64,000 nucleotides of DNA from an uncultured Chloroflexota bacterium (GCA_903884455.1 CAISEW010000037.1:80161-144160); one strand, 5' to 3'; counted from the first letter of the stretch, positions 632 through 64,000 are shown. Notes: generated by a model from the letters alone, not told the origin. Translations and numbers: made by a program.

Positions 632-3600
632 TCATTTTCTGCTCTTTAAATACTCTCTGAGTGGTTGAACGTTAAAGATTTGGCTACTACTTGCTAGCGC
701 CTCTATAGCTACCCGAGCAGTATCTAATGAGGTGAAGCATGGTATCCTCTTTTCTGCCGCGGCACGCCTGATATCTAACCCGTCTTTTAGCGGAATGCGC
801 CCTCCAGTGATAGTATTAATCACTCCGCTCACAGAATTATCTTGAATAACATCAATAACGTTAGGATGCCCCTCGCTTAGCTTCTTGGTCACCATTTTTA
901 CTGGGAGCCCCATAGATTCAATCATCTCTGCGGTCCCCTCCGTGGCGTAGAGCTCATGGTGAAGGGAATGCAATTGCTTAATCAGAGGCTCGGCTTCAGC
1001 TTTATCCTTGTCGGCGATGCTAAGTAGCAGACTACCTCCTTGAGGCAGCATCAATCCAGAGGCTAAAAGGGCCTTAACCAAGGCTGCCTCAAAGGTGTAG
1101 TCAATCCCCATAACCTCGCCTGTGGATTTCATCTCAGGACCAAGGTAACTATCTACTCCAGTTAATTTGGACATAGAGAAAACGGGAGCTTTTATACCTA
1201 CCAACTTTTGTCTCTTCCGTAACCCGCCTTCGTAGCCCTGCTCCTTGAGGCTAATCCCAGCCATGACCTTAGTGGCAATTCTTACCATGGGCACGCCGGT
1301 TACCTTGGAGATAAAAGGCACGGTTCGGCTGGCGCGGGGATTTACCTCAAAAACATATACCGTTGAGCGACCATTTTCCCGCATGATTACCATCTGGACG
1401 TTCATCAACCCTTTAATTCCCAGAGCCAGTCCAATTCTGATGGTGTAATCCACCATGGCATTTACTTCGTCTTGAGTGAGATTGATTCCCGGGTAGATAG
1501 CCAAGGCATCACCGCTATGTACACCAGCTCTTTCAATATGCTCCATCACGCCAGGAATAAGAACCTTTTCCCCGTCGCAAATGGCATCTACCTCGACTTC
1601 TTTACCCTGGAAATATTTATCAACAAGCACAGGATGCTGGCTGTCCATCTCCAGAGCTAGTGTCAGGTAGCGGATTAACTCAGGTTCGTTGTACACGATT
1701 TCCATAGCCCGGCCCCCTAGAACATAGCTAGGGCGCACTAACACGGGATAACCTAAGGACTTGGCTACATTTAATGCCTCTTCAACGGATGTTACTCCAG
1801 CCCCCGGCGGCTGGGGAATCCCCAATCTGTCCAGGAAATCTTCAAAGCGACGGCGGTCTTCAGCTATGTCTATAGCTTCGGCACTCGAGCCGAGTATTGG
1901 TAGATTGTTGCGCGCTAGGACCCCAACCAAATTAATGGGTGTTTGTCCACCAAGCTGGACGATGGATGGTGGAGCAGAACCGTTATTACTCTCATTCTCA
2001 AGTATATTTCGGATGCTTTCCTCGTCCAACGCTTCGAAATAGAGGCGAGTACTGGTGTCAAAATCAGTGGAAACTGTCTCAGGATTAGAATTGACCAAGA
2101 TGCTCTTTATTCCTATCTCTTGAAGCGCCCAGGCTGAATGGACGCAGCAATAGTCAAACTCAATTCCCTGCCCGATGCGTATAGGCCCGCTGCCGATGAC
2201 CACAGCTTTCTTCCCTTCCAAAGGCGCGGCTTCGTTCTCTTTTTCATAGGTGCTGTAGAAATAAGGGGTCTCAGCATCAAATTCGGCAGCACAGGTATCC
2301 ACCATCTTGTACACCGGGCGAATTCGCCATTCATGGCGAGCCTGTCTTACCTGCTCCGGCAACCTATCGGCCAAAGTGCCCACTTGCTCATCGGAAAAGC
2401 CGAGCCTCTTCGCCTCCCATAAAAGCTCCGGTGTCAACGGTTCGGAAAGAAGCCTCCTCTCCATGTCCACAATATTCTGGAACTTATAAATAAACCAGGG
2501 GTCTATGCCGGTGACTTGGGAGAGCTCTTCGGGCGTGGCTTCCCTTCGCAGCGCCGCCATAATCGCCCATAGTCTTAAGTCGTTGGGGTGAAGGGGATAG
2601 GACTTAAGCCCTTCCTCTTTACTCCAACTGGGGTCTTCCCAGAGCAGGGTGCGTTTGCCGAATTCCAGGGAGCGCACTGCCTTTTGCATAGCAGCCTCAA
2701 AACACCTGTCAATGGCCATTACCTCACCAGTGGCTTTCATCTGGCTGCCAATTTTTCGGTCACCCAAAGCAAATTTATCAAAGGGCCATCTGGGAATCTT
2801 GACTACACAGTAATCCAGGGCTGGCTCGAAAGACGCCAGCGTTTTGCCTGTGACCTTATTAGGGATCTCATCAAGCCTCTTGCCTATGGCTATTTTGGCA
2901 GCCACCCGAGCAATAGGATAGCCAGTGGCTTTACTTGCTAAAGCTGAGCTACGGCTGACACGTGGGTTGACTTCGATTACGTGGTATTCGCTTCTTGTGA
3001 CTCCCTTTTGGTCTGGAGCCCATTTTCCCGCCACTATGGGATGTGGAGTAAGGGCAAACTGTATATTACAGCCACCCTCGATTTTCAAGGCTCTTATGAT
3101 TCTCAGACTGGCCGACCTGAGCATCTGGTATTCCTTGTCGGTGAGAGCTTGGCTAGGGGCTACCACGATGCTATCCCCGGTATGCACCCCCATAGGATCA
3201 ATGTTTTCCATATTACACACGGTAATGCAGTTATCAGCAGCATCCCGCATAACTTCGTATTCAATTTCCTTCCAGCCTAAAACGCACTGTTCCACCAGAA
3301 CTTCGTGGCTCATGCTGGAATCCAAGCCATTGGCAACAATCTGCTCAAGCTCTTTCATAGTGTAGGCGATGCCGCCGCCAGTGCCCCCCAGGGTGTACGA
3401 AGGACGGACGATGAGAGGCAAACCTATGGACCTTGCCAATTCTTTCGCCTCATTCACCGACTTCACCGTGGCGCTCTTAGGCACAGGCTCGCCAATATCA
3501 AGAAGAAGCTGCTTAAACAAAGACCTTTCCTCGGCCTTCTTTATTGTTTCTATAGGTGTGCCCAGAGACCGCACATTATACTTATCGAGTATGCCGGCAT

Positions 3601-9864: not shown

Positions 9865-11085
9865 TCAGGCACGAAACAGCCTTCTAAATAGACTTACAAA
9901 GTTGCCCCAGACACCAGCGCTTTTTACTTGGAAAGCCCCCTCTTTGCCTCGTATCGGCCATAGGAGTAATCCCACGGTAGTAGCGTAAGCCGGGTCCTGA
10001 AGGATATCGGAAATGCCATAGATGCCTGTGTTCAAAGGTCGACCTTTGCGTACCGGGATTCGCAAAACTGACTGTCCTAACTCGTCAAGCCCGGGTAGGT
10101 TAGTTGTGCCACCTGTGAGCACTAAACCACAAGGCGCCAAAGCATTGTAATCGCTAGTGGGCATCTCCATTAATATGAGTTGGAGCAACTCCTCCATGCG
10201 AGCCCGGATGATATGGCATAGGTCTTTATAAGAGGCGCTATGACCATTTTCGAGACCCACTTGGGCCGCTTCGTCAAGCTCTAAAGTGGGGGTGACGTTG
10301 CCATATCTCTTCTTCATCTTTTCCGCAATACCAAAAGGCAGGCCCAAGCCTATAGAGATATCGCTGGTTACCTGATAACCGGCTACTGGAATGATAGCGG
10401 TGTGATAGATGCTGCCATTCTTAAATACCGCTATATCCGTGGTCCCGCCCCCTATGTCAGCCATAATAACACCCGTGTCTCTTTCCTCCGGAGTCAATAC
10501 TGCCTCTCCGCTAGCCAGGGGCTCAAGGATGAGGTCTTCAACGTCAATACCGATACTGCGGATGCATTTAGCCAGGTTTTGTATCGAACTCACTGAAGCA
10601 GTGATGATATGGGTTTCTACATCTAACCTGCGCCCATGCATGCCTACCGGCTGTGTCACTCCTTCCTGTCCATCCAGTGAGTAAGAGCGAGGAATAGCAT
10701 GGAGCACCTTCTTTCCTTCGGCGACGGTGACATTACGAGCCGCAGATAGCGCCCGCTTAAGGTCCTGAGTGCGCACCAATCGATCATCTCGCGGGATAGA
10801 TATTACCCCCCGATTATTCAGACTAGTTATATGTCTGCCGGTAACCCCAACATAGGCAGAATCTATATGTATGCCACTAACTCTTTGAGCTTCCTTTACC
10901 GATGTGGCAATGGATTGTTTGGCTTCATCCATATTAACTAAGATGCCTTTATGTAGGCCGTGAGAGGGAACGACTCCCACTCCTAAAATTTCAATGTCAT
11001 CTTCTGCTTTGACATTAGCCACGAGAGTGGCTATTTTAGTTGTGCCCACATCAATAGCTGAAATGATTTTCTTTGCCATTTTCAC
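9865..11085 (-). CDS. ftsA: cell division protein FtsA
   Basis: 406 aa actin-like ATPase (AIDVGTTKI, DIGGGTTD); immediately upstream of ftsZ. Confidence 0.9.
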   Translation of the reverse strand: MKMAKKIISAIDVGTTKIATLVANVKAEDDIEILGVGVVPSHGLHKGILVNMDEAKQSIATSVKEAQRVSGIHIDSAYVGVTGRHITSLNNRGVISIPRDDRLVRTQDLKRALSAARNVTVAEGKKVLHAIPRSYSLDGQEGVTQPVGMHGRRLDVETHIITASVSSIQNLAKCIRSIGIDVEDLILEPLASGEAVLTPEERDTGVIMADIGGGTTDIAVFKNGSIYHTAIIPVAGYQVTSDISIGLGLPFGIAEKMKKRYGNVTPTLELDEAAQVGLENGHSASYKDLCHIIRARMEELLQLILMEMPTSDYNALAPCGLVLTGGTTNLPGLDELGQSVLRIPVRKGRPLNTGIYGISDILQDPAYATTVGLLLWPIRGKEGAFQVKSAGVWGNFVSLFRRLFRA

Positions 11086-11108
11086 CTCCTTTTTGGTGAG
11101 AATACTGC

Positions 11109-12047
11109 CTAGTTGAGTCGCTCAGCTATCCTTAATTTAGCGCTGCGGCTGCGTGGGTTGGATTCTATCTCCAACGAGGTAGGTTTAATAACCTTCCGTG
11201 AAATGAGCTTCAAGGCGGGCACATGCCCACAGCGACATATTACTGTTCCCGGGGGACATAGGCAGCTGCTGGCTGCGTAGCGCATGAATTGCTTAACTAT
11301 ACGGTCTTCCAGAGAATGATAACTAATGACTGTTAATCTCCCCCCGGGGCGAAGGAGGTTAAGGGTTTGATTGAGAGCCAGCTCCAGATTTTGTAGTTCA
11401 CTGTTGACCGCGATGCGAAGCGCCATGAAGGTTCTTGTGGCAGGGTGAATTTTGGCACGCTTGCCGCCTAAAACTTGCTCTACCAAGCGGGCAAGCTCCA
11501 CGGTGGTAGCGATAGGACGATTTTGAACGATGTGCTGCGCTATTCGCCGGCTGTGACGCTCTTCACCGTATCGTTCTATGAGCTTAGCCAACTCTTGCTC
11601 AGAGAAGCTGTTAACGATATCCGATGCGGTTAACCCTTGCCCAGGATCGAACCTCATATTTAGGGGAGCATCGAGGTGGAAGCTGAAGCCACGTTCGGCT
11701 GTATCCAGTTGTAGAGAAGAAACACCAAGGTCGAAAAGGATACCATCAACTGGATGAAAATGGTATCTTCTGCAGATGACCTCAAGGTTAACGAAGTTGT
11801 CATTAACCAAAGTAACTGCTTCGCCATAGTCGTTAAGTTTATCTTGACTTATTTTGATGGCTTCAGGATCCGCGTCAATGCCTAAAAGCCTTCCTGAGGG
11901 TGAAATTTTTTCTAATATGGCTGCTGCGTGTCCCCCCAGACCGACAGTGCAGTCAATGAAGTAACCTCCTCGCTGAGCCTGCAGCCCTGCTATAACTTCA
12001 TCAAGCAGAGCAGGCACGTGGACGGGCAAGGAAGTGGTGACGCTCAT
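11109..12047 (-). CDS. rsmH: 16S rRNA (cytosine1402-N4)-methyltransferase RsmH (MraW)
   Basis: 312 aa; SAM-binding motifs (DCTVGLGGH, FDLGVSS); follows mraZ. Confidence 0.9.
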   Translation of the reverse strand: MSVTTSLPVHVPALLDEVIAGLQAQRGGYFIDCTVGLGGHAAAILEKISPSGRLLGIDADPEAIKISQDKLNDYGEAVTLVNDNFVNLEVICRRYHFHPVDGILFDLGVSSLQLDTAERGFSFHLDAPLNMRFDPGQGLTASDIVNSFSEQELAKLIERYGEERHSRRIAQHIVQNRPIATTVELARLVEQVLGGKRAKIHPATRTFMALRIAVNSELQNLELALNQTLNLLRPGGRLTVISYHSLEDRIVKQFMRYAASSCLCPPGTVICRCGHVPALKLISRKVIKPTSLEIESNPRSRSAKLRIAERLN

Positions 12048-56514: not shown

Positions 56515-56730
56515 ATGAAGGCAGTTGAATCGAGAACTGAAATTTACTTGATGGCGCTACAATCGCTTTCCAAGGCAGAGAAGGAGGCGGTCATTGTCCG
56601 TTTGTTGGAAGATCCTCAGCTCAGAGAAGATATTCTCGATTTAGCTCTTATCCAGCAGCGGCAAGGAGAGCCATCCAGGCCTTTTACAGAATACCTAGCT
56701 GACAGAAAAGAGCGGGCTCGTAAGGCGTGA
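56515..56730 (+). CDS. putative type II antitoxin (partner of the RelE/ParE toxin)
   Basis: 71 aa; 4-bp overlap (GTGA) with the downstream toxin gene; AAGGGAGG RBS. Confidence 0.55.
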   Translation: MKAVESRTEIYLMALQSLSKAEKEAVIVRLLEDPQLREDILDLALIQQRQGEPSRPFTEYLADRKERARKA

Positions 56731-56981
56731 AGTACCAGGTCCGAATCATCCCTTCCGCTGAGAAGGAGATGGATAAGCTTCCAGCACTAATTCATAGACA
56801 CATCAGTAGAAAAATCCTCTTGTTGGAAGACAATCCCAGGCCCAGAGGCGCAAAGAAGCTTAGCGGTCGTGAAGAATATCGTCTCAGAGCGGGCGATTAT
56901 AGGGTCTTATATACTATCGATGACAAGGGACATGTGGTTACAGTCTTTGCTGTAGGCCATCGACGGGAAGTATATCGATAA
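56727..56981 (+). CDS. RelE/ParE family type II toxin
   Basis: 84 aa; YRLRAGDYRVLYTIDDKGHVVTVFAVGHRREVYR is the classic RelE/ParE C-terminal signature. Confidence 0.8.
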   Translation: MKYQVRIIPSAEKEMDKLPALIHRHISRKILLLEDNPRPRGAKKLSGREEYRLRAGDYRVLYTIDDKGHVVTVFAVGHRREVYR

Positions 56982-57009: not shown

Positions 57010-57837
57010 ATGCCCGAACTCCCTGAAGTAGAGACAATTAAGAACGAGCTTTCGCCCTGGGTTGTGGGGCAAAGCTTCACTCAAGTTACTATCTTTGATG
57101 CCGAGCTGGTGTGTGGTAGTTCTGCTGAAGAAGTCCGTCGCGGGTTAATCGAGCAGAAGGTAGAAAGCCTGGGACGCCGGGGAAAGTATCTCATCTTCCA
57201 CCTGTCAAATGGCAGGTCACTGGTTATACATCTCAGGATGACCGGCAGCTTGCTGTTGAATCCCAAGGAAGTTGAGCGCTATGCCCGGGCGGTTTTTCAC
57301 TTCTCCAGTGGGCACCGCCTTGTTTTCAGCGACCGGCGCCGGCTGGGGGTAATGTGGCTGGTAGACGATGCCAGTACTGTGGTCGGCAAGCTGGGCCCCG
57401 AGCCGCTGGAGGAAAGCTTTACCCCGGGTATTCTGGGGCAAAGATTAAGCCGGCATCACATCCCCGTAAAAGCCGCGCTTCTCGACCAATGTATCGTCGC
57501 GGGAATCGGCAATATGTATGCCGATGAAGCCCTCTTTGCCGCTCGGATTCACCCTCTGAGAAAAACAGACGCCCTGTCGCCTGCAGAAGTGCAGACCCTA
57601 CATCACTGCGTTCGTAGGGTTCTTCAGGCAGCCATCGGCAGCAAAGGCGCCAGCGTGGATACCTACGTCCGCCCCGAGGGCGAGCTGGGCACAGCTCATT
57701 TCGATTTTAAGGTTGCTCATAAGGGAGGCGAGCCCTGCCCCATTTGCGGCAGCACCATCGAGCGGCTCCCCGTGCAGAACCGCGGCACCTACTTCTGCCC
57801 TAGATGTCAACCTTTTGATTCCGGGCCTCTGATATAA
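57010..57837 (+). CDS. fpg: formamidopyrimidine-DNA glycosylase
   Basis: 275 aa; N-terminal MPELPEVE catalytic motif, H2TH region, C-terminal zinc finger CPICG..CPRCQ. Confidence 0.9.
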   Translation: MPELPEVETIKNELSPWVVGQSFTQVTIFDAELVCGSSAEEVRRGLIEQKVESLGRRGKYLIFHLSNGRSLVIHLRMTGSLLLNPKEVERYARAVFHFSSGHRLVFSDRRRLGVMWLVDDASTVVGKLGPEPLEESFTPGILGQRLSRHHIPVKAALLDQCIVAGIGNMYADEALFAARIHPLRKTDALSPAEVQTLHHCVRRVLQAAIGSKGASVDTYVRPEGELGTAHFDFKVAHKGGEPCPICGSTIERLPVQNRGTYFCPRCQPFDSGPLI

Positions 57838-57877
57838 AAGCTGGCAGCGACTGGATTTGCACCAGCGACTAAAGGCT
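57780..57877. repeat. copy A of a ~98-bp imperfect direct repeat (last 58 bp of fpg plus 40 bp downstream)
   Basis: Aligns with 59876-59973 at ~90% identity; contains a T-arm-like GCTGG-ATTTGCA-CCAGC motif. Confidence 0.7.
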
Positions 57878-58072
57878 TATGACAGCCAGGCTCGAAAGCT
57901 GAATTACATAGCGTCTTCGAATTCACGCTGTGATAACAAGCATCGAGAGCGTTGTGCCTTCAAAAATTGCAGGGAATAGCGGCTTCTTCAGCCGTTATTC
58001 CTTCGTCTTGAACAACATCTCAAGAGGAGGTCCGACAGATTATGTTTCCACATTTTCACGCTCATCGCCAGC

Positions 58073-59791
58073 CTACTCATTCATGGCGTACTCGCCGTTC
58101 AAAACGGAAACATACTGCTCCCATACACTGTTATATTGCTCGGAATTTGGCACTGCCTTAATAAGCATAATCTTGACACAATAATCTCGTTGTGCATCCT
58201 TGGAACTATGGTTGCCGTAGATTTGCATGGCAAATTGAGCAAAGTCACGCACCATGAAATCAAACATCTGGTTCAGAATGGCTGAATCGATTCCGCTGAT
58301 ACTGGCCTGCTCGAGGATGAGCTGGCCGTACACAACAATGGAGAACATCTCGCCCACAGGTAGAGACCACGAGGGGTCCCTATCCTGGGCCTCGTCCGGG
58401 CCCGCCTTTTCCAGCATCTCCTTGAAAATATCTATTTGCTTCATGAAGGCAGCCACATTGGGCAGGCCCTTATTGGCCTCGAAGACAGGCTTATAATCGT
58501 GGAACTGTATTTTCCCCAGTCCCCTGGTGGGGCCCTGATTGAAGAGGAACAGGTCGTCTTTTTCCGAAAGGTCCGGAGCTACTGGTGGATACTCGGCGGG
58601 GTTGAAGAAGTAGTTTCGCATGAACTTGCGGATGAGCTGGATGTTCACGTGGACCGTTCCCTCGAGCTTGGACGGGCCCATGATATCGGCGGTTGCCATG
58701 TGAAAGTAGGTGTCCTTTTCAAATCCCTTGGCTGCGATCACTTCCCAGAGCAGGCTGACCACCTCTTCGGCCTGCAGGGTCACCTTCATCTTGCTCGTGG
58801 GGTTGTAGAGCAGGTAGCGGCGGTCGTTCTGGCTGGAATTCCTAAAATAGTCAGTGGCGCGGCGCTGGTAGAGCTTCATGACCACCAGGCGCAGCCAGGC
58901 ATCCATGAAGTTCTTCCGCACGTGGGGCATGTCCGTGACCCGTATGCCGTAGAGGATGCGGTTGGATGCATGGGTGATGGCCTCGTAGAAGCAGTGTTCA
59001 GCAATCCCGATGGATCCGGGACCGATGTTGAATTTGCCGATGTTCACGGTGTTGAGCGCACAGTCCCAGGCATAGGAGCCCCGGGAGAGGATGTCATCCT
59101 CTGTGATGGGATAGTCGTGCAGAGCGAAGTTGGACACGTATTCCTGGTGGGAGACGACGTTCTTCTTGAGCTCGTAGGCCTTGTGGCGGAAGTTGGTGAC
59201 GAAGAAAGTGTAGTCGTCAGTGCCGTCCTTGATTTTCCCCAGAGTGGACACCATTTCCGCTTCATTGCCGTTGCCGATGTAATATTTTTCCCCGTTCGCC
59301 ACCCATGTACCGTCAGGCATTGGCGTGAGTGAGGTTTCCGTCGAATAAATGTCTGCGCCGTGGGCCCTCTCAGAAAGGCCGTACGCAAAAATCGCCCCCT
59401 TCTTGAGGAGCCTGGCTGCTTTCCTTTTCGCCTTTTCATTCTGACTCATCCAGATGGGGCCCAGGCCCAGGATGCTCACCTGGAAGCAGTACCAGTAGCC
59501 CAGGCCGTAGAAAGCCAGGAGTTCGGCATATTCACTGTTGCGGGCCGTGTCCCAGCGATAGTCGGGATCTCCGCCGGCATATTTCTTGGGCGTCAGCAGC
59601 TTGGCAAAGATCTGCTCCTTGCCGATGAATTCGACAAACTCACTGTACCAGACCTTCTTGTCGTAATCATCGAGAACCCTGGCCTTGCCCATCTTTTCGA
59701 AGAAGGCAATAGTCTTGTTCATGATGGCTCTTGATCCCTTGTCGGCCACAAGGCTTTTATATTTTTTGGGCTGTAGTAGATAATTCATCAT
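58073..59791 (-). CDS. acyl-CoA dehydrogenase family protein (long, ~570-aa type)
   Basis: 572 aa; ACAD-like catalytic segment YGLSERAHGADIYS...NGEKYYIGNG; GC visibly higher than surrounding DNA; bracketed by the fpg-end direct repeats. Confidence 0.65.
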   Translation of the reverse strand: MMNYLLQPKKYKSLVADKGSRAIMNKTIAFFEKMGKARVLDDYDKKVWYSEFVEFIGKEQIFAKLLTPKKYAGGDPDYRWDTARNSEYAELLAFYGLGYWYCFQVSILGLGPIWMSQNEKAKRKAARLLKKGAIFAYGLSERAHGADIYSTETSLTPMPDGTWVANGEKYYIGNGNEAEMVSTLGKIKDGTDDYTFFVTNFRHKAYELKKNVVSHQEYVSNFALHDYPITEDDILSRGSYAWDCALNTVNIGKFNIGPGSIGIAEHCFYEAITHASNRILYGIRVTDMPHVRKNFMDAWLRLVVMKLYQRRATDYFRNSSQNDRRYLLYNPTSKMKVTLQAEEVVSLLWEVIAAKGFEKDTYFHMATADIMGPSKLEGTVHVNIQLIRKFMRNYFFNPAEYPPVAPDLSEKDDLFLFNQGPTRGLGKIQFHDYKPVFEANKGLPNVAAFMKQIDIFKEMLEKAGPDEAQDRDPSWSLPVGEMFSIVVYGQLILEQASISGIDSAILNQMFDFMVRDFAQFAMQIYGNHSSKDAQRDYCVKIMLIKAVPNSEQYNSVWEQYVSVLNGEYAMNE

Positions 59792-59875
59792 TACTCCCCT
59801 CCTGCTCGGTGGTTCAAGAACTTTACTAAAATTAATCTATGCCAGTCAAGAATATTCTGCTACATAGACACAGGG

Positions 59876-59973
59876 CCGTGGCACCTGCTTCTGCCCCAGA
59901 TGCCAACCCTCTGGTTCCGGGCCTCTGATATAAAAGCTGGCAGCGGCTGGATTCGAACCAGCGACTAAGGGCT
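59876..59973. repeat. copy B of the fpg 3'-end direct repeat (includes a degenerate duplicate of the Fpg C-terminal codons ..GTCFCPRCQPSGSGPLI*)
   Basis: Aligns with 57780-57877; here the internal motif is GCTGG-ATTCGAA-CCAGC (tRNA T-arm-like on the reverse strand). Confidence 0.7.
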
Positions 59974-59974
59974 A

Positions 59975-59997
59975 GGGAAAAACATTGGGATGTGTGT
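59975..59997. repeat. 23-bp direct repeat GGAAAAACATTGGGATGTGTGT (second copy at 63277-63299, 21/23 identical)
   Basis: Seen directly; the two copies bracket the low-GC HEPN/PLD islet. Confidence 0.55.
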
Positions 59998-60135
59998 CAT
60001 TTCATGCGTATGTTACGGTATAATGATTTTGAATAGATTTAACGGCTGAATCAAAGTCTTGTTCATGGTTGTTCTGCGAAAAAGACGTTGAGTATTCTGC
60101 TTTTGCTCTATGAGCACCTTTCAGACACAGATTCT

Positions 60136-61284
60136 CTAATTCTCAAAAGGTATGTCTGTCGGCTCCGGGGTTGGCTCGACTTCTTGAAACTTGTCAATCG
60201 ACTCTTTTAGAGAATCCTTCCAGAATCCTTCATAAATTTGCACGGCATAATCTGCAAGCTCATAGAAGCGTTTGTCGCCCGCCTTCAAATACTTGTCAAT
60301 TGTACTTACAGCTAGATTCGCCAAAGCTGTGCCTTGCATTTCGCTCAGGGTGGACAATAATGGGTCGCTGAAGTACTCAAATACATAGTCTTGCTCATTC
60401 CTATTCGAAGACTTAAGTTTTTTCAGAAGTGCCCAAATGAAATCGTTTTTCATGAGGAATACGTGCAGATGTTCGTTGCACCACGTTCCGAATGCTCCCT
60501 TGATACACTTACCAGAGGACTTGATATACTCTCCTTCAGCAACTGACTGGAGGAACCTATTCTCACTTCTCAATTTCGCTGATTCATCTAAACGCGTCCA
60601 GAATTCAATCGGAAAAATTCTCGTTGAGAATCGCACCGAATCGTTGGAGTCGGTGCGATTCAATTCCTCCGACACGACTTCTGCTAGTTTTGACATCTCA
60701 TCTTCTTCTAGCTTTGCTACAAGAACCTCACCAAATAGTATTAGTTTTCTGATTTCTCCCTTTTCTTTTCTTCTATAAACCTCTATCATCACATCCAGCC
60801 TCTGCTTGGGAGGGATTATCTGCACGAGTAACTCTGCGTATCTTTTTCTTTCGACAAAAGAGGGGTCGAAAACTCTGTCCAAGAACTCAGTTTTGGAGAA
60901 TGCACCCTTGGCGCCTCCTATTATTCTCAGAAGATAATCGATGAAAAAAATTATCGCATCAGCATCTTCCTTTGTGTCAACATGCTTTCCATGACTTCTC
61001 GGATTGCGGATACTTTGATACAACCCTAACAATAAGTTCTCCGTTCCTTTTTGAATGCTGCGCTCGGATTCTGTCTGCAATTTGTTGACTTTCAATTTCG
61101 GTGATTTGCCGCCGAGAGCTTGCCCAACCAATGCAACACCGTCACTTTGGAGGCCTGCCTTTTCTCTGATACAGTCCCCCAAATAGTACATGGCATCTAG
61201 TATTGCGCCGGTATAGTTACCGGATTCATACGCAGCCTCAATTGCAGCCCATAGGGGTTCAGCTAAGCCCGTCTTTAAACTCAT
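60136..61284 (-). CDS. HEPN-motif protein (N-terminal TIGR02391/Abi-like domain with R-x4-H motif RNPRSH) plus ~250-aa uncharacterised C-terminal domain
   Basis: 382 aa; N-terminal ~130 aa with a conserved ...LLGLYQSIRNPRSHG... HEPN Rx4-6H signature; low GC. Confidence 0.55.
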   Translation of the reverse strand: MSLKTGLAEPLWAAIEAAYESGNYTGAILDAMYYLGDCIREKAGLQSDGVALVGQALGGKSPKLKVNKLQTESERSIQKGTENLLLGLYQSIRNPRSHGKHVDTKEDADAIIFFIDYLLRIIGGAKGAFSKTEFLDRVFDPSFVERKRYAELLVQIIPPKQRLDVMIEVYRRKEKGEIRKLILFGEVLVAKLEEDEMSKLAEVVSEELNRTDSNDSVRFSTRIFPIEFWTRLDESAKLRSENRFLQSVAEGEYIKSSGKCIKGAFGTWCNEHLHVFLMKNDFIWALLKKLKSSNRNEQDYVFEYFSDPLLSTLSEMQGTALANLAVSTIDKYLKAGDKRFYELADYAVQIYEGFWKDSLKESIDKFQEVEPTPEPTDIPFEN

Positions 61285-61446
61285 TTCGATTCCTTTAAAT
61301 CAATTCACTCAATCTCAGAAGTCGCTTCATAAGTGCTGCAATTCTTTCTGTGTAAGAGAGGATAAATTCCGCGTTTGTTTGTCCACGAAAGTATTATAAC
61401 ATAACATTGAGACTAATTCATGTCTTGAATGCTACAATAGGTAAAC

Positions 61447-61560
61447 ATGGAGAAAAAAGACGAATTAACAGAAGCTTTAAAAGCTATCAAGAATATAGCG
61501 GATAATACATCTTGGTTTAGAGATACTCCTCACTACTGGGCATTTGTCTTATTTGAATAA
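61447..61560 (+). CDS. possible small ORF (37 aa, MEKKDELTEALKAIKNIADNTSWFRDTPHYWAFVLFE)
   Basis: Below the ORF-track cutoff; preceded by an extended -10-like TGCTACAAT (61431-61439) and followed 26 bp later by the next gene; could be a leader peptide or a spurious ORF. Confidence 0.2.
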   Translation: MEKKDELTEALKAIKNIADNTSWFRDTPHYWAFVLFE

Positions 61561-61586
61561 GCCAAAATCTAAGGGGGTAAAGAATA

Positions 61587-61952
61587 ATGATTCAAGAAGG
61601 ATACCGTAGTAAGGCAACAAAATGGGGTAATTATACAGTTAGAAAAGTGGTACGACTTAATAAACCTGTAGAATGCTTCAGCAAAGACAAAGGGAGGGCC
61701 CTTTTCAACCCTACAATGGTTAAACTTGAGTGGGATGTTCCACCTTCAGGCGATAAGAATGAATTCTGGTTCCCATACTGGATTACCTGGGTTGATGTTG
61801 ATGGCAAGGAGAGATATGGGCAATATTCTCCCATGATTGGTGAGAAAGCCTTACTTGAACTTTTGAAGGGTGCAATAGTGCAGGACTTCTTTAGTAGAGA
61901 TTTTTTGCACGACTTGAATGCTACTATTTCACAAAAGTTAGGTAATAAATGA
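61587..61952 (+). CDS. hypothetical protein (121 aa)
   Basis: ORF with AAGGGGGT RBS 8 nt upstream of the ATG; no recognisable motifs; upstream of the PLD nuclease gene. Confidence 0.4.
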   Translation: MIQEGYRSKATKWGNYTVRKVVRLNKPVECFSKDKGRALFNPTMVKLEWDVPPSGDKNEFWFPYWITWVDVDGKERYGQYSPMIGEKALLELLKGAIVQDFFSRDFLHDLNATISQKLGNK

Positions 61953-62108
61953 GTGTAATAGATGTCTTCTATGCTTAGATTTGGTTTATTAATCCATGCA
62001 AGAGACTAAACCCCTTATGTGACCTCACCAAATCATCAATAGTTCTTTTATGCCATAAATTCCTTACTAAGCTTGCACTATTGGGATTGACTCTCTAAAC
62101 TATTAAGC

Positions 62109-62852
62109 GTGGCAACGTTCTTGACAACTCGAGGCACCATATCTGAATTAGAGAAGATTATCAACAATGCGGTAGATGGTGTTGCATTGATATCTCCATT
62201 TATAAAGATACCTGATAGCTTATTCCAAAATCTAAAAGCGGCTGACCAACGAGGTGTAAGAATATCGATAGTATACGGCAAGAGTCAACTTGAGCCGGAA
62301 ACATCAAAACGGCTTACGGAGTTGAGAAATGCAAGGCTATATTTCCTTGAGAATCTACATGCCAAGTGCTATTTCAACGAAAGGTCGATGGTGATAACCT
62401 CCCTGAATCTATACGACTCTTCCGAGGTAAACAACCGGGAAATGGGTGTACTGGTAACTAAACAGGAGGACGAAGCCGTCTACAATGGAGCAATCCGAGA
62501 ATCGGGGATGATAATTGCTCTGGCTGACCGGTGTGATTTAAGTGCACAAGTTGCTAAGCAGAAAAAGGCCCGCCTGCGAAAACAGAGAGGAATAAATGAG
62601 CCTGAGGGTACTTGGCGCAGGGGCCCATCCAATGTTTTTTCAGCATTTTTCGGTAGAAATAACGCCTTCTGTATAGGTTGCAGAACAAAGATTGATTTCG
62701 ACGAGTATAGGCCATATTGCGTCGCATGTTACGCTAAGTGGGCACACGATAACTGGCAAGAAGCAAAGTACTGTCATGAATGTGGTCGAGAGTCAATAAC
62801 CACTATTAATAAGCCTCGATGCCGTTCTTGTTATGGAGAAGCTTCGAAATAA
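62109..62852 (+). CDS. PLD-family (single HKD motif) nuclease with C-terminal double zinc ribbon
   Basis: 247 aa; HKD-like motif LHAKCYFNERSMVITSLNL (HxK-x4-E-x6-TSxN); C-terminal CIGC...CVAC and CHEC...CRSC Cys pairs; start codon (GTG at 62109) uncertain. Confidence 0.6.
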   Translation: MATFLTTRGTISELEKIINNAVDGVALISPFIKIPDSLFQNLKAADQRGVRISIVYGKSQLEPETSKRLTELRNARLYFLENLHAKCYFNERSMVITSLNLYDSSEVNNREMGVLVTKQEDEAVYNGAIRESGMIIALADRCDLSAQVAKQKKARLRKQRGINEPEGTWRRGPSNVFSAFFGRNNAFCIGCRTKIDFDEYRPYCVACYAKWAHDNWQEAKYCHECGRESITTINKPRCRSCYGEASK

Positions 62853-62971
62853 TTTCAGATATTGTCCACTGGACTATACCTCTTATGTGCCTCTATCGCA
62901 TCATAGCATCCCACAGCCTGGCAATATTGATTAGTCACCATCAACGTTAACAGAAAGCCTACCTCAAATTA

Positions 62972-63199
62972 CTATCTTCTGTTTCTAATAGCTTCAATTA
63001 CTGAAAGAAGAACTCCGACACCTATGAGAGGGTAACCTATCCGACGAGAATCACCGAAAATAATCCCCAGAACCACTAAGCACATACCAAGTATAGCGAG
63101 GTTTGAGGGTTGTTGATATTGCCTTCCCCTGGCTATAAGCAAAAGCACCACAATAACGACCAGGGCAACGATTGAAATGGCAATCCACACTGGTTCCAT
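62972..63199 (-). CDS. small membrane protein (2 TM)
   Basis: 75 aa, two hydrophobic helices separated by RGRQYQQ; GGAGG-containing RBS upstream of the ATG. Confidence 0.3.
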   Translation of the reverse strand: MEPVWIAISIVALVVIVVLLLIARGRQYQQPSNLAILGMCLVVLGIIFGDSRRIGYPLIGVGVLLSVIEAIRNRR

Positions 63200-63276
63200 G
63201 AATACCTCCTTTTAGAAGTACTGGCTACTTTCAAAAATTATAGCACTGAGGGCAAAGCGAAGATAGATTATTACCA

Positions 63277-63299
63277 GGAAAAAACATCGGGATGTATGT
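63277..63299. repeat. second copy of the 23-bp direct repeat (GGAAAAAACATCGGGATGTATGT)
   Basis: Matches 59975-59997. Confidence 0.55.
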
Positions 63300-63505
63300 T
63301 AACCCATGATAAAAACTATTTGCAGTCATGTCAACTGGCCTCACCTGTCCCTCCGGGGTTTGACCTTAAACATCGCAACGAACTCGTAGGTATTGGAAAT
63401 GGCTAAAGTGACCAACACAATCAACTTCATCTAACCTGGGGTTTTGTGGCTTCGATTGCGGGTGCCTAAGGTGAGCTATCTTACTTTCGAAATGACGCTC
63501 TGTGT

Positions 63506-63552
63506 CACAAGTAAGTATACTGACACTATATAAATGTCAGCTCTTACTTGTG
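63506..63552. repeat. nested palindrome CACAAGTAAG..CTGACA-n9-TGTCAG..CTTACTTGTG
   Basis: Seen directly; 10-bp outer and 6-bp inner inverted repeats with an AT-rich centre (TATATAAA); candidate operator or structured RNA. Confidence 0.5.
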
Positions 63553-63646
63553 TGATAGCCATCACACTGCAACGGCTCCATGACACTCAATACCCTCAAA
63601 GAGCATAGATTAGCATGGAAGCCACCAAAAAGATCGCCTACTAATC

Positions 63647-63796
63647 TTTGACTAGGTGGCTCTTGCCGATGCGGAAGATCTTGGTGCCACAAGCCGGGCA
63701 GATATCCCGAGTTGCCGGTCTGCCATTCTTCATGATTATGGCCTTGGGATTTTTCATCTCCCTCTTGGTCCTGCACTTAACACAATAAGCTTGCAT
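63647..63796 (-). CDS. small zinc-ribbon protein (DUF5679-like)
   Basis: 49-aa ORF MQAYCVKCRTKREMKNPKAIIMKNGRPATRDICPACGTKIFRIGKSHLV with a GGAGGTG RBS 6 nt upstream; CxxC...CxxC ribbon; preferred over the overlapping 79-aa ORF-track ORF in another frame. Confidence 0.55.
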
Positions 63797-64000
63797 TGGC
63801 CCACCTCCTTTTGATTACAAACGATATAGCATTCCCACCCACGATGTCAACTGTTTATCACAGGTTGCAGGTAAAACTCGTTCTCGTATCCAATATAAAG
63901 GTCACGTGGCTATAACTCGCCCCAGCAATCATCGCGATGGGGCTTCCCAGTCACACTCGTTTTCCGTTAGATAGAAGACAAAGAGATTTCTTATCATGCG

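Follow-up and report, generated by a model that had tools for sequence, protein, structure and literature searches.

A candidate tRNA-Met integration hotspot with tandem degenerate cassettes downstream of fpg in an uncultured Chloroflexota bacterium

Downstream of fpg, the gene for formamidopyrimidine-DNA glycosylase, a stretch of 64,000 nucleotides (nt) from an uncultured Chloroflexota bacterium (GCA_903884455.1, CAISEW010000037.1:80161-144160; hereafter the window) carries two direct-repeat copies, A and B, that bracket a single gene of the acyl-CoA dehydrogenase (ACAD) family. The window was taken from a metagenome scaffold of 159.6 kb. Judged by comparison with related loci, the region appears to be a hotspot of integration into a tRNA gene, with a tRNA-Met site and not fpg as the target, in which degenerate cassettes stand in tandem. 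Each of the two copies seems to be a leftover attachment-site scar, built from the tail of fpg and the 3′ half of a tRNA-Met gene. It is probable that copies A and B are neighboring scars in a tRNA-Met integration array, in which cassettes are inserted, lost and exchanged beside scars that can be used again.

The two copies (57775-57877 and 59871-59973) form a direct repeat of 103 nt that is 87% identical, ungapped and offset by 2096 nt, and in a pairwise alignment their homology has abrupt edges at both repeat limits. A degenerate pattern of 30 nt derived from the repeat, with at most three mismatches, has two matches in the window, namely copies A and B, for a chance expectation of 0.00 (100 shuffles). 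The repeat is composite: approximately 63 nt of fpg tail are followed by a 5-nt spacer and by 35-42 nt of the 3′ half of tRNA-Met(CAT), which lies on the minus strand and runs from the acceptor strand to the anticodon loop. Copy A comprises the final 21 codons of fpg with the stop codon, plus 40 nt downstream. Copy B retains the same stretch of 21 codons in frame, and Fpg residues 255-275 are matched there at 76% (tblastn). The tRNA 5′ half is absent from both copies. Copy A alone has also kept the anticodon loop (GTCATAA on the tRNA strand), and its tRNA fragment covers tRNA positions 4-44 at 92.7% identity (blastn); the T arm of copy B is canonical (GCTGG-ATTCGAA-CCAGC). No tRNA is called in either copy by ARAGORN or Rfam, because the 3′ half alone is present. 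The loci of 80 Dehalococcoidia genomes with an fpg ortholog were therefore fetched for comparison, and it is solely from intact genes in these relatives that the tRNA identity of the repeat could be established. Three claims of the original prediction, which had been made from the sequence of the window, are confirmed at this point: an imperfect direct repeat brackets one ACAD gene (an open reading frame, ORF, of 572 codons), copy B holds degenerate codons of the Fpg C-terminus, and the motif that was noted as resembling a tRNA T arm is, by alignment to the intact genes, the true T arm of tRNA-Met.

An intact tRNA-Met(CAT) gene is found by ARAGORN farther along the same scaffold, in the same orientation as the fragments (L089 3284-3357; fetched loci are cited by such L numbers). 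This corresponds to approximately 70,440-70,513 in window coordinates, past the window end and 12.6 kb to the right of the fpg stop codon; within the 64-kb window itself, ARAGORN detects no intact tRNA-Met gene. The intact gene closes the array and sits between MerR and a KTI12/AAA_33-PHP-AdoHcyase-MetK block, and two further short tRNA-Met fragments are present on both sides of MerR (L089 3869-3891 and 4416-4434). Given these members farther along the scaffold, copies A and B are the first two of an array. The bracketed segment of 2 kb had been regarded as the whole element; it proves to be one cassette of an array of approximately 12.6 kb, extending from fpg to the intact tRNA-Met gene.

The same architecture recurs in related Dehalococcoidia, for which the 80 genome loci were supplemented with 48 metagenome loci, gained by an exact-match contig scan for the junction between fpg tail and tRNA. 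In the more distant relatives, an intact tRNA-Met(CAT) gene is oriented tail to tail with fpg, on the other strand, either directly after it (L024, L035, L049 and L051) or at a distance of 5-9 kb (L026, L029, L038 and L039). Downstream of fpg, the genome loci hold 72 tRNA-Met-like sites, comprising 8 intact genes and 64 fragments, and 72/72 have one orientation. The last matched tRNA position in the 64 fragments is 48 at the maximum and mostly 40-45, i.e., the anticodon loop, and no fragment reaches beyond the anticodon stem-loop. When genome and metagenome loci are combined, there are 181 sites in 89 loci, with a mixed orientation in 0 loci. The median spacing of the sites is 2086 nt (interquartile range 1246-3157), up to nine sites occur per 20 kb, and the cargo between them is unrelated and varies from genome to genome, in line with the recurrent insertion hotspot that had been proposed. 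By the usual definition of an island, the locus thus has an intact tRNA gene at one end, displaced 3′ fragments in direct orientation and a crossover in the anticodon loop. Additionally, a tyrosine integrase lies next to a tRNA-Met 3′ half in one viral contig (L098, described below). The fixed orientation, the anticodon-loop limit, the distal intact gene and this integrase-adjacent example fit the model of tRNA integration by tyrosine integrases (PMC4383910).

The ACAD cassette itself is polymorphic. Among 21 close relatives, each with at least 2.5 kb of sequence past fpg, it is present in 7 and absent from 14. It takes the first array place in the window, L007, L010, L014, L091 and L096, the second in L016 and L083 and the third in L018, and in L084 lies 5.5 kb away from fpg. 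All copies have one left junction in common, the tRNA fragment being followed by TTATGACAGCCAGGCTCGGAAGC..., and in L016, L083 and L084 this tRNA fragment is not preceded by fpg sequence. The variant of the left tRNA fragment found in the window (GCGACTGG...TTTGCACC) accompanies ACAD into L084, where it lies away from fpg. At the other end, the ACAD upstream region is followed in L084, L014 and L022 by a longer fpg fragment (fpg′) that begins near codon 222. One deletion of 270 nt, common to the window, L007, L091, L096, L083 and L018, has fused the ACAD upstream region to fpg codon 255, and the fpg′ of the ACAD cassette formerly had at least 54 codons. The left edge of copy B, which had been interpreted as an attachment (att) boundary, is therefore the end point of this deletion. 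ACAD and the right-hand module of fpg′ and tRNA fragment (fpg′-tRNA′) remain joined in different array contexts. Since ACAD, the 270-nt deletion junction and the module travel together, the module forms the right end of the cassette and not the left one.

These comparisons also bear on the question of which gene is the target. The original prediction had assigned this role to the 3′ end of fpg, but what the 181 sites have in common is the 3′ half of tRNA-Met(CAT). Some sites carry a preceding fpg fragment of 19-98 codons, and the tRNA half occurs without any fpg part in L003 (two sites), L004, L009, L011, L012, L016, L023 and L029. In an alternative model, fpg itself would be the target, in the style of e14 and phage 21 at icd: a crossover near codon 222 would bring in a replacement tail and displace the host tail to the right, with the tRNA half merely carried along as the neighbor of fpg. 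This would account for the left limit that fpg′ fragments share at window 57673-57679 (six copies, five genomes), and for the resident fpg tail and tRNA fragment of L011, L013 and L022, which are unlike the typical displaced copy farther right. Moreover, an fpg tail is needed to restore fpg, yet is superfluous when the tRNA gene is targeted. The many tRNA-only sites weaken the model nevertheless, as does the ACAD-left site without fpg tail in L016, L083 and L084. The joint travel of ACAD, deletion junction and module identifies the latter as the cassette's right end, the two types of fpg tail diverge only about 30 nt before the stop codon rather than from codon 222, and no integrase is found in the window, 97 related loci or 48 metagenome loci. 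Integration into fpg is consequently considered unlikely. The two tail types are allelic, ...SGPLI and ...KPGHSK-like, each before the stop codon (resident fpg 3′ ends of L011, L013, L014, L016 and L023), and their differences are limited to the spacer, the adjoining tRNA scar and the last ~30 nt of fpg; L011 and L013 each combine a resident tail of one type with a displaced fpg′ copy of the other.

Composition and divergence provide a second line of evidence for exchange. The total GC content of ACAD is 0.530, compared to 0.490 ± 0.026 for 41 ORFs of the window, and that of fpg is higher still (0.564); the whole ACAD cassette (0.518) equals the stretch from polA to fpg (0.516). As a foreign mark of ACAD, total GC was dropped on the basis of a sliding-window profile. 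Clear outliers are instead the GC content at third codon positions (GC3), which is 0.724 versus 0.505 ± 0.059 for the same 41 ORFs (z = 3.7), and codon usage, with a divergence from the core pool of 0.073 where core ORFs of more than 300 codons peak at 0.058. The claim that ACAD clearly exceeds its flanks in GC thus stands for GC3 only. When the window is compared with its relatives in the same genome pairs, synonymous divergence (dS) is 0.06-0.11 for ACAD and 0.24-0.60 for polA and fpg, i.e., 3-8 times lower in ACAD, and the nucleotide identity of the cassette is 92-96% where that of polA is 86-93%. The zone of low dS (0.00-0.15) runs on through an ORF of 75 codons, DUF5679, several small ORFs and GyrI, thereby spanning shared segments without bounding scars, and dS returns to 0.2-0.35 at flavodoxin and RNase J. 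Taken at face value, this pattern marks ACAD as a horizontally exchanged cassette of foreign composition and recent exchange. Hence the view that att-type direct repeats surround horizontally exchanged DNA is upheld by the polymorphism, low dS and constant junctions of ACAD. The opposite situation, with the same gene, repeats and core-like composition in all relatives, is not observed, as ACAD is missing from 14/21, differs in position and has atypical codon usage.

The same data speak to two explanations that dispense with integration. The first is a local tandem duplication of fpg tail, tRNA fragment and ACAD, the second copy of which decayed, so that the locus would be an old, fixed rearrangement. 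No simpler route exists for copying an fpg tail along with a tRNA fragment, and the divergence of the copies (87% identity) and the former length of the cassette's fpg′ (at least 54 codons) agree with it. However, what lies between the copies and beyond them is unrelated cargo that differs among genomes; ACAD is lacking in 14/21 close relatives and shifts its array position; and its GC3 and codon usage are atypical, with a dS 3-8 times below that of its neighbors. A tandem duplication is very improbable and is excluded for the whole structure, although it could survive as the origin of the first fpg′ copy only. The second explanation, a mis-join during metagenome assembly that created a false repeat, comes to mind since the window stems from a metagenome scaffold. 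It is excluded for the whole structure, for the same order of fpg, ACAD and repeat is present in independent assemblies that come from other studies, namely L007, L091, L096, L010, L014, L110, L117 and L142, and comparable arrays exist in dozens more assemblies.

For the integration array, the following course of events can be proposed. In the wider lineage, fpg and the tRNA-Met(CAT) gene are convergent neighbors. Integrative elements would recombine at the anticodon loop of the tRNA-Met gene, presumably by means of a tyrosine integrase acting in trans, and each event would leave a displaced tRNA 3′ half in direct orientation. These scars would stay usable, whether a recombinase provided in trans acts on them or they merely offer stretches of homology, and short cassettes of 1-3 genes could enter, leave and pass between related genomes beside them. 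The ACAD cassette would have come in beside the scar proximal to fpg, with its own scar and a donor piece of fpg tail at its far end; the fpg tail may have joined the travelling unit when the donor flank was taken into the module. A later deletion of 270 nt would then have cut this piece to the 21 codons of copy B. Homologous recombination via repeated modules of 100-450 nt might add to the shuffling.

Several observations weigh against this course of events. Firstly, no recombinase is at hand. Searches by phmmer, seeded with the tyrosine integrase of L098, XerD and gamma-delta resolvase, revealed no tyrosine or serine recombinase, whether in the window, in the 1.37 Mb of 97 related loci or in the 306 kb of the 48 metagenome loci, DDE transposases not being searched for. 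The XerD seed did recover the L098 integrase (8.6e-20). Likewise, no recombinase is listed in the precomputed Pfam annotation of the scaffold genes, and across the 10 kb that flank fpg on each side, neither the window scaffold nor its relatives contain a tyrosine recombinase. The earlier statement that an integrase is absent thus holds well beyond the window, with no recombinase found in approximately 1.7 Mb from ~145 loci. L098 is a 13-kb viral contig from IMG/VR that ends in a tyrosine integrase of 303 residues (PF00589, 2.6e-21), located 39 nt from a tRNA-Met 3′ half which matches the scar-derived pattern over 27 nt. Relatives of this integrase are found neither in the fpg loci (tblastn and phmmer) nor in IMG/VR, where only L098 itself is retrieved. 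Secondly, the inverted repeat that would be expected of a recombinase core site, rebuilt across the junction, is seen at neither window copy. Over all sites, it occurs as a perfect stem in 8% versus 2.5% of controls, and with mismatches allowed in 20% versus 3.8%, the enrichment coming from one junction class; as evidence for the window it was set aside, because both window copies lack it. Thirdly, the fpg tail of 19-98 codons in the repeat is superfluous for an integrase that targets a tRNA gene, and is not explained by the standard model. Fourthly, entry at the intact tRNA gene predicts that the cassette proximal to fpg is the oldest, but ACAD, in that place, is polymorphic and young, and a core-like block of flavodoxin, RNase J and PrsW lies nearer to the tRNA gene than ACAD does. 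From the youth of ACAD and the place of this block it follows that the insertion used a scar and not the intact gene. Lastly, the right end of the phospholipase D (PLD) module to the right of copy B has no tRNA scar.

A serious rival, which we rank as possible but clearly less probable than the integration array, is that the scars are relics without present site-specific recombination, and that cells take up DNA and swap cassettes by homologous recombination. As anchors would serve fpg, the repeated fpg′/tRNA′/leader modules of 100-450 nt and the conserved right-hand segment, and circular or linear donor fragments would integrate Campbell-style through the repeat. The ~1.7 Mb of loci without recombinase are readily understood in this way, as are the fpg tail of variable length within the repeat and the low-dS zone that covers shared segments unbounded by scars. 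In the same direction point the left tRNA variant of the window, which travels with ACAD to L084 and not beside fpg, and copy B, which at 84/94 positions is no nearer to copy A than to its counterparts elsewhere (up to 87/94 in other genomes). The difference between these two scores is too small to weigh for an import of copy B from one particular donor, and that idea was rejected. Homologous exchange leaves unexplained, however, why the tRNA 5′ half is missing from every fragment, why new cargo always starts at the anticodon loop, and how unrelated cargo first acquired flanks with scars.

The integration array shares traits with several known systems, of which Islander-type tDNA islands, the ssrA island arrays of Dehalococcoides and CIME/accretion arrays (described below) come nearest. 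In the Islander collection, displaced tDNA fragments mark the ends of islands, with the regenerated gene at the other end (Hudson, Lau and Williams 2015, PMC4383910). The array resembles such islands in its intact tRNA gene at one end, the direct displaced 3′ fragments, the anticodon-loop boundary and the foreign, variable content, as well as in the tyrosine integrase that L098 has beside the same tRNA half. In contrast, the array has no integrase, its units are approximately 2 kb instead of 5-100 kb, the scars rather than the intact gene are used for insertion, and many scars include a piece of the neighboring protein gene. The anticodon loop is reportedly one of the classes of tRNA integration sublocation that Williams distinguished in 2002 in Nucleic Acids Research.

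The ssrA islands of Dehalococcoides stand in tandem downstream of a single target and are bounded by direct repeats of its 3′ end (McMurdie et al. 2011, PMC3146451). These islands use the T loop of the tmRNA gene, with a 20-bp repeat and a CcrB-like serine recombinase in 16 islands, and carry strain-specific cargo; for some that lack an integration module, mobilization in cis or accretion has been proposed (PMC3146451). The present array is found in the same bacterial class and has the tandem arrangement at one target, the repeats of the target 3′ end and the members without integrase in common with them (PMC3146451). By analogy with their integrase-less members, insertion at the scars by a recombinase supplied in trans is most likely (PMC3146451). 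The two systems differ in the site, which here is the anticodon loop of tRNA-Met, with a repeat of 35-45 nt to which at most 300 nt of fpg are added, and in that no recombinase was detected here in any of ~145 loci.

Segments flanked by att sites that are devoid of integration and transfer genes, and that accrete at the attachment sites of an integrative and conjugative element (ICE), are said to occur in Streptococcus thermophilus, with ICESt1 and its cis-mobilizable elements (CIMEs) as the example. The array matches CIMEs and accretion arrays in having att-flanked segments without recombination and transfer genes, in tandem by a target gene, but differs in that no partner ICE or integrase is known for it. 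The elements e14 and phage 21 reportedly cross over within icd and restore it, as described by Hill and colleagues in 1989 and by Campbell in 1992. As in these elements, the insert here has at its far end a degenerate pseudo-fragment that duplicates the 3′ end of a protein gene, whereas an obligatory gene tail is not found: the fpg tail is dispensable and the tRNA half is constant. Hypervariable islands of streamlined genomes such as Prochlorococcus, which Coleman and colleagues are said to have described in Science in 2006, are reportedly flanked by tRNA genes, poor in integrases and marked by repeated partial tRNA sequences. The array shares with them the integrase-poor variable DNA next to a tRNA gene and the repeated tRNA fragments, and differs in phylum and tRNA.

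Integron arrays, finally, also consist of short cassettes of mostly 1-3 genes that each end in a site-like repeat, and the array itself likewise holds no recombinase. Unlike in integrons, there is no IntI or attI, the repeats are tRNA halves and not attC hairpins, gene orientation is mixed, and cassettes (ACAD and the leader-bearing class described below) have their own promoter-like sites. The locus therefore lacks the integrase of a self-mobile island and all the defining features of an integron. It is conceivable, if doubtful, that the tRNA-Met 3′ halves form a working gene-capture system analogous to integrons, with reusable sites for cassettes of 1-3 genes and a recombinase encoded elsewhere or on a phage. 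In this reading, the recombinase would excise and insert the cassettes, and many of the halves are extended, either by an fpg tail or by a conserved leader of 75-115 nt whose predicted promoter points outward.

The features of the locus are collected in Table 1.

Table 1. Features from fpg to the right end of the window, in window coordinates
Feature	Position	Strand	Basis
fpg, coding for formamidopyrimidine-DNA glycosylase (275 aa, intact); core flank to the left of the hotspot	57010-57837	+	ORF; Pfam Fapy_DNA_glyco PF01149, H2TH PF06831, zf-FPG_IleRS PF06827
Repeat copy A: fpg tail 57775-57837, spacer 57838-57841, then tRNA-Met 3′ fragment	57775-57877	+	Repeat finding, alignment, pattern scan
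tRNA-Met(CAT) 3′ fragment A	57842-57883	-	Alignment to eight intact tRNA-Met genes of relatives
Fragment A, discriminator	57842
Fragment A, acceptor 3′ strand	57843-57849
Fragment A, T arm	57850-57866
Fragment A, variable loop	57867-57871
Fragment A, anticodon-stem 3′ strand	57872-57876
Fragment A, anticodon-loop remnant	57877-57883
ACAD cassette; left and right junction sequences constant in every relative that has it	57884-59867	-	Junction alignments
ACAD-family flavoprotein, 572 aa; single gene of the cassette	58073-59791	-	Pfam, PDB
Promoter-like site of the cassette, ahead of the ACAD gene: TTGACT and TAAAGT, 18 nt apart	59820-59849	-	Consensus scan, 9/12 positions
fpg′ pseudo-fragment of copy B: codons 255-275 and stop, in frame, without start codon	59868-59933	+	tblastn, 76%
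tRNA-Met(CAT) 3′ fragment B, acceptor strand to anticodon-stem 3′ strand	59938-59973	-	Alignment with intact tRNA-Met genes, blastn
Low-GC cassette: Hypoth_Ymh/HEPN-like protein 60136-61284 (-), 121-aa ORF 61587-61952 (+)	59974-62025		Pfam PF09509, TIGR02391, PADLOC PD-Lambda-3_B 4e-16
PLD-nuclease cassette: ORF 62109-62852, PLDc_2, DrmC-like	62026-62947	+	Pfam, NCBIfam DrmC, PADLOC DrmC/MkoB
Shared right-hand segment: 75-aa membrane ORF 62972-63199 (-), DUF5679 63641-63796 (-)	62946-64000		Identity, dS

The protein encoded by the ACAD cassette has both the middle and the C-terminal domain of the acyl-CoA dehydrogenase family: in Pfam, Acyl-CoA_dh_1 (PF00441) scores 52.2 bits (1e-13), over the cut-off, and Acyl-CoA_dh_M (PF02770) 29 bits (1.2e-6), under its cut-off of 33.3. 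Its best PDB match is butyryl-CoA dehydrogenase (1buc, 1.6e-13), next to other acyl-CoA dehydrogenases, and no NCBIfam equivalog reaches its cut-off. There are more than 8000 homologs, including proteins with 82% identity in metagenome-assembled genomes (MAGs) of Deltaproteobacteria and Desulfomonilia. In four Deltaproteobacteria MAG contigs (L085-L088), the ortholog (gene 10001-11719; 82% protein identity, dS 1.2) has an unrelated but conserved chromosomal context, adjoining a gene for an acetyl-CoA hydrolase/transferase. This suggests an old transfer across phyla and gives a hint on the class of substrate, which may be short-chain or alicyclic CoA esters. All ACAD cassettes conserve the sequence around the upstream promoter-like site, which is a predicted promoter.

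To the right of copy B, the region 59974-62945 is low in GC (0.414), consists of two modules and is the compositionally odd flank of the locus. For the first module, 59974-62025, no homologous DNA is found in any relative among the fetched loci, so that it is confined to this scaffold; the PLD module recurs in L012 at 83.6%. From 62946-62951 onwards, the sequence is 94-98% identical to that of ten relatives, with a break point that recurs in 10 loci, and the shared segment up to the window end is still within the exchangeable zone of low divergence. In L007, this segment directly follows the equivalent of copy B; L007 therefore represents the empty state for both right-hand modules. The PLD/DrmC-like gene is bracketed by an imperfect direct repeat of 33 nt (73%; 62004-62036 and 62872-62904), which loosely resembles the variable-loop and anticodon part of the tRNA scar and of which the first 18 nt, GACTAWACCYCTTATGTG, occur only there (0.12 expected). 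An adjacent islet of 23-bp repeats had been reported earlier as well, but Tandem Repeats Finder (TRF) detects no tandem array; the sole candidate is the 33-nt repeat, which may be what was meant. A second small variable spot is the gap between polA and fpg (window 56515-56981), which contains a ParE toxin with a partner of 71 residues in the window, L092, L095 and L097; L083 and L091 have a HicA/HicB pair there instead, and in L096 the gap is empty.

In the relatives, one junction class (class 0, 31 sites, e.g., L140 2080-2238, L022 12985-13143 and L006 4570-4728) has a conserved leader of 75-115 nt after the tRNA fragment, which is absent from the window. The leader rebuilds an inverted repeat of 8-10 bp that encloses a variable 7-nt spacer; at its end stands an outward-facing promoter-like motif, TGGTATAAT, and at least 14 different cargo groups follow; class-0 cassettes bear promoter-like sites. 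A structured RNA or gene call in the leader was rejected on a weak RNAalifold consensus (-6.55 kcal/mol, little covariation), and so was a tRNA, with 25.2 bits for the Rfam tRNA model at a cut-off of 29. ARAGORN reports a tRNA-Gly(ACC) right after the scar in two arrays (L008 2827-2902 and L100 6893-6968) and a 'tRNA-Asp' of 93 nt that overlaps the scar at L091 13425-13517; in view of the odd anticodon and length, these may be artifacts of tRNA fragments or real cargo tRNAs. With regard to other cargo, the cassettes of relatives abound in defense-type genes: the precomputed Pfam annotation of L096 4033-8844 is of this type (D12 methyltransferase, HATPase_c_3, AAA_15 and Shedu SduA_C), and candidates noted by eye in the variable regions of other relatives (e.g., L013 and L018) are a C5 methyltransferase, DUF262, a Dam-like methylase and a retron-type reverse transcriptase.

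Altogether, the phenomenon is a familiar one that is well documented here, and it is notable for its regularity, the composite fpg′-tRNA′ module and the absence of recombinases in ~145 loci. The locus maps where and how uncultured, streamlined Dehalococcoidia swap accessory genes, with a single address, from fpg to tRNA-Met, for cassettes of approximately 2 kb. Their cargo is metabolic (ACAD, hydrolases and radical-SAM enzymes) as well as defense-type (PLD/DrmC-like and HEPN-like proteins, Shedu SduA and methyltransferases). The tRNA-Met half is a simple sequence tag for spotting such arrays in metagenomes. If a trans-acting recombinase is found, the locus would become a compact natural model of integrase-free cassette arrays, and the picture of the Dehalococcoides ssrA islands would be extended to a tRNA target. 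Should the tRNA halves indeed constitute a gene-capture system, defense and niche genes would be concentrated at one chromosomal address.

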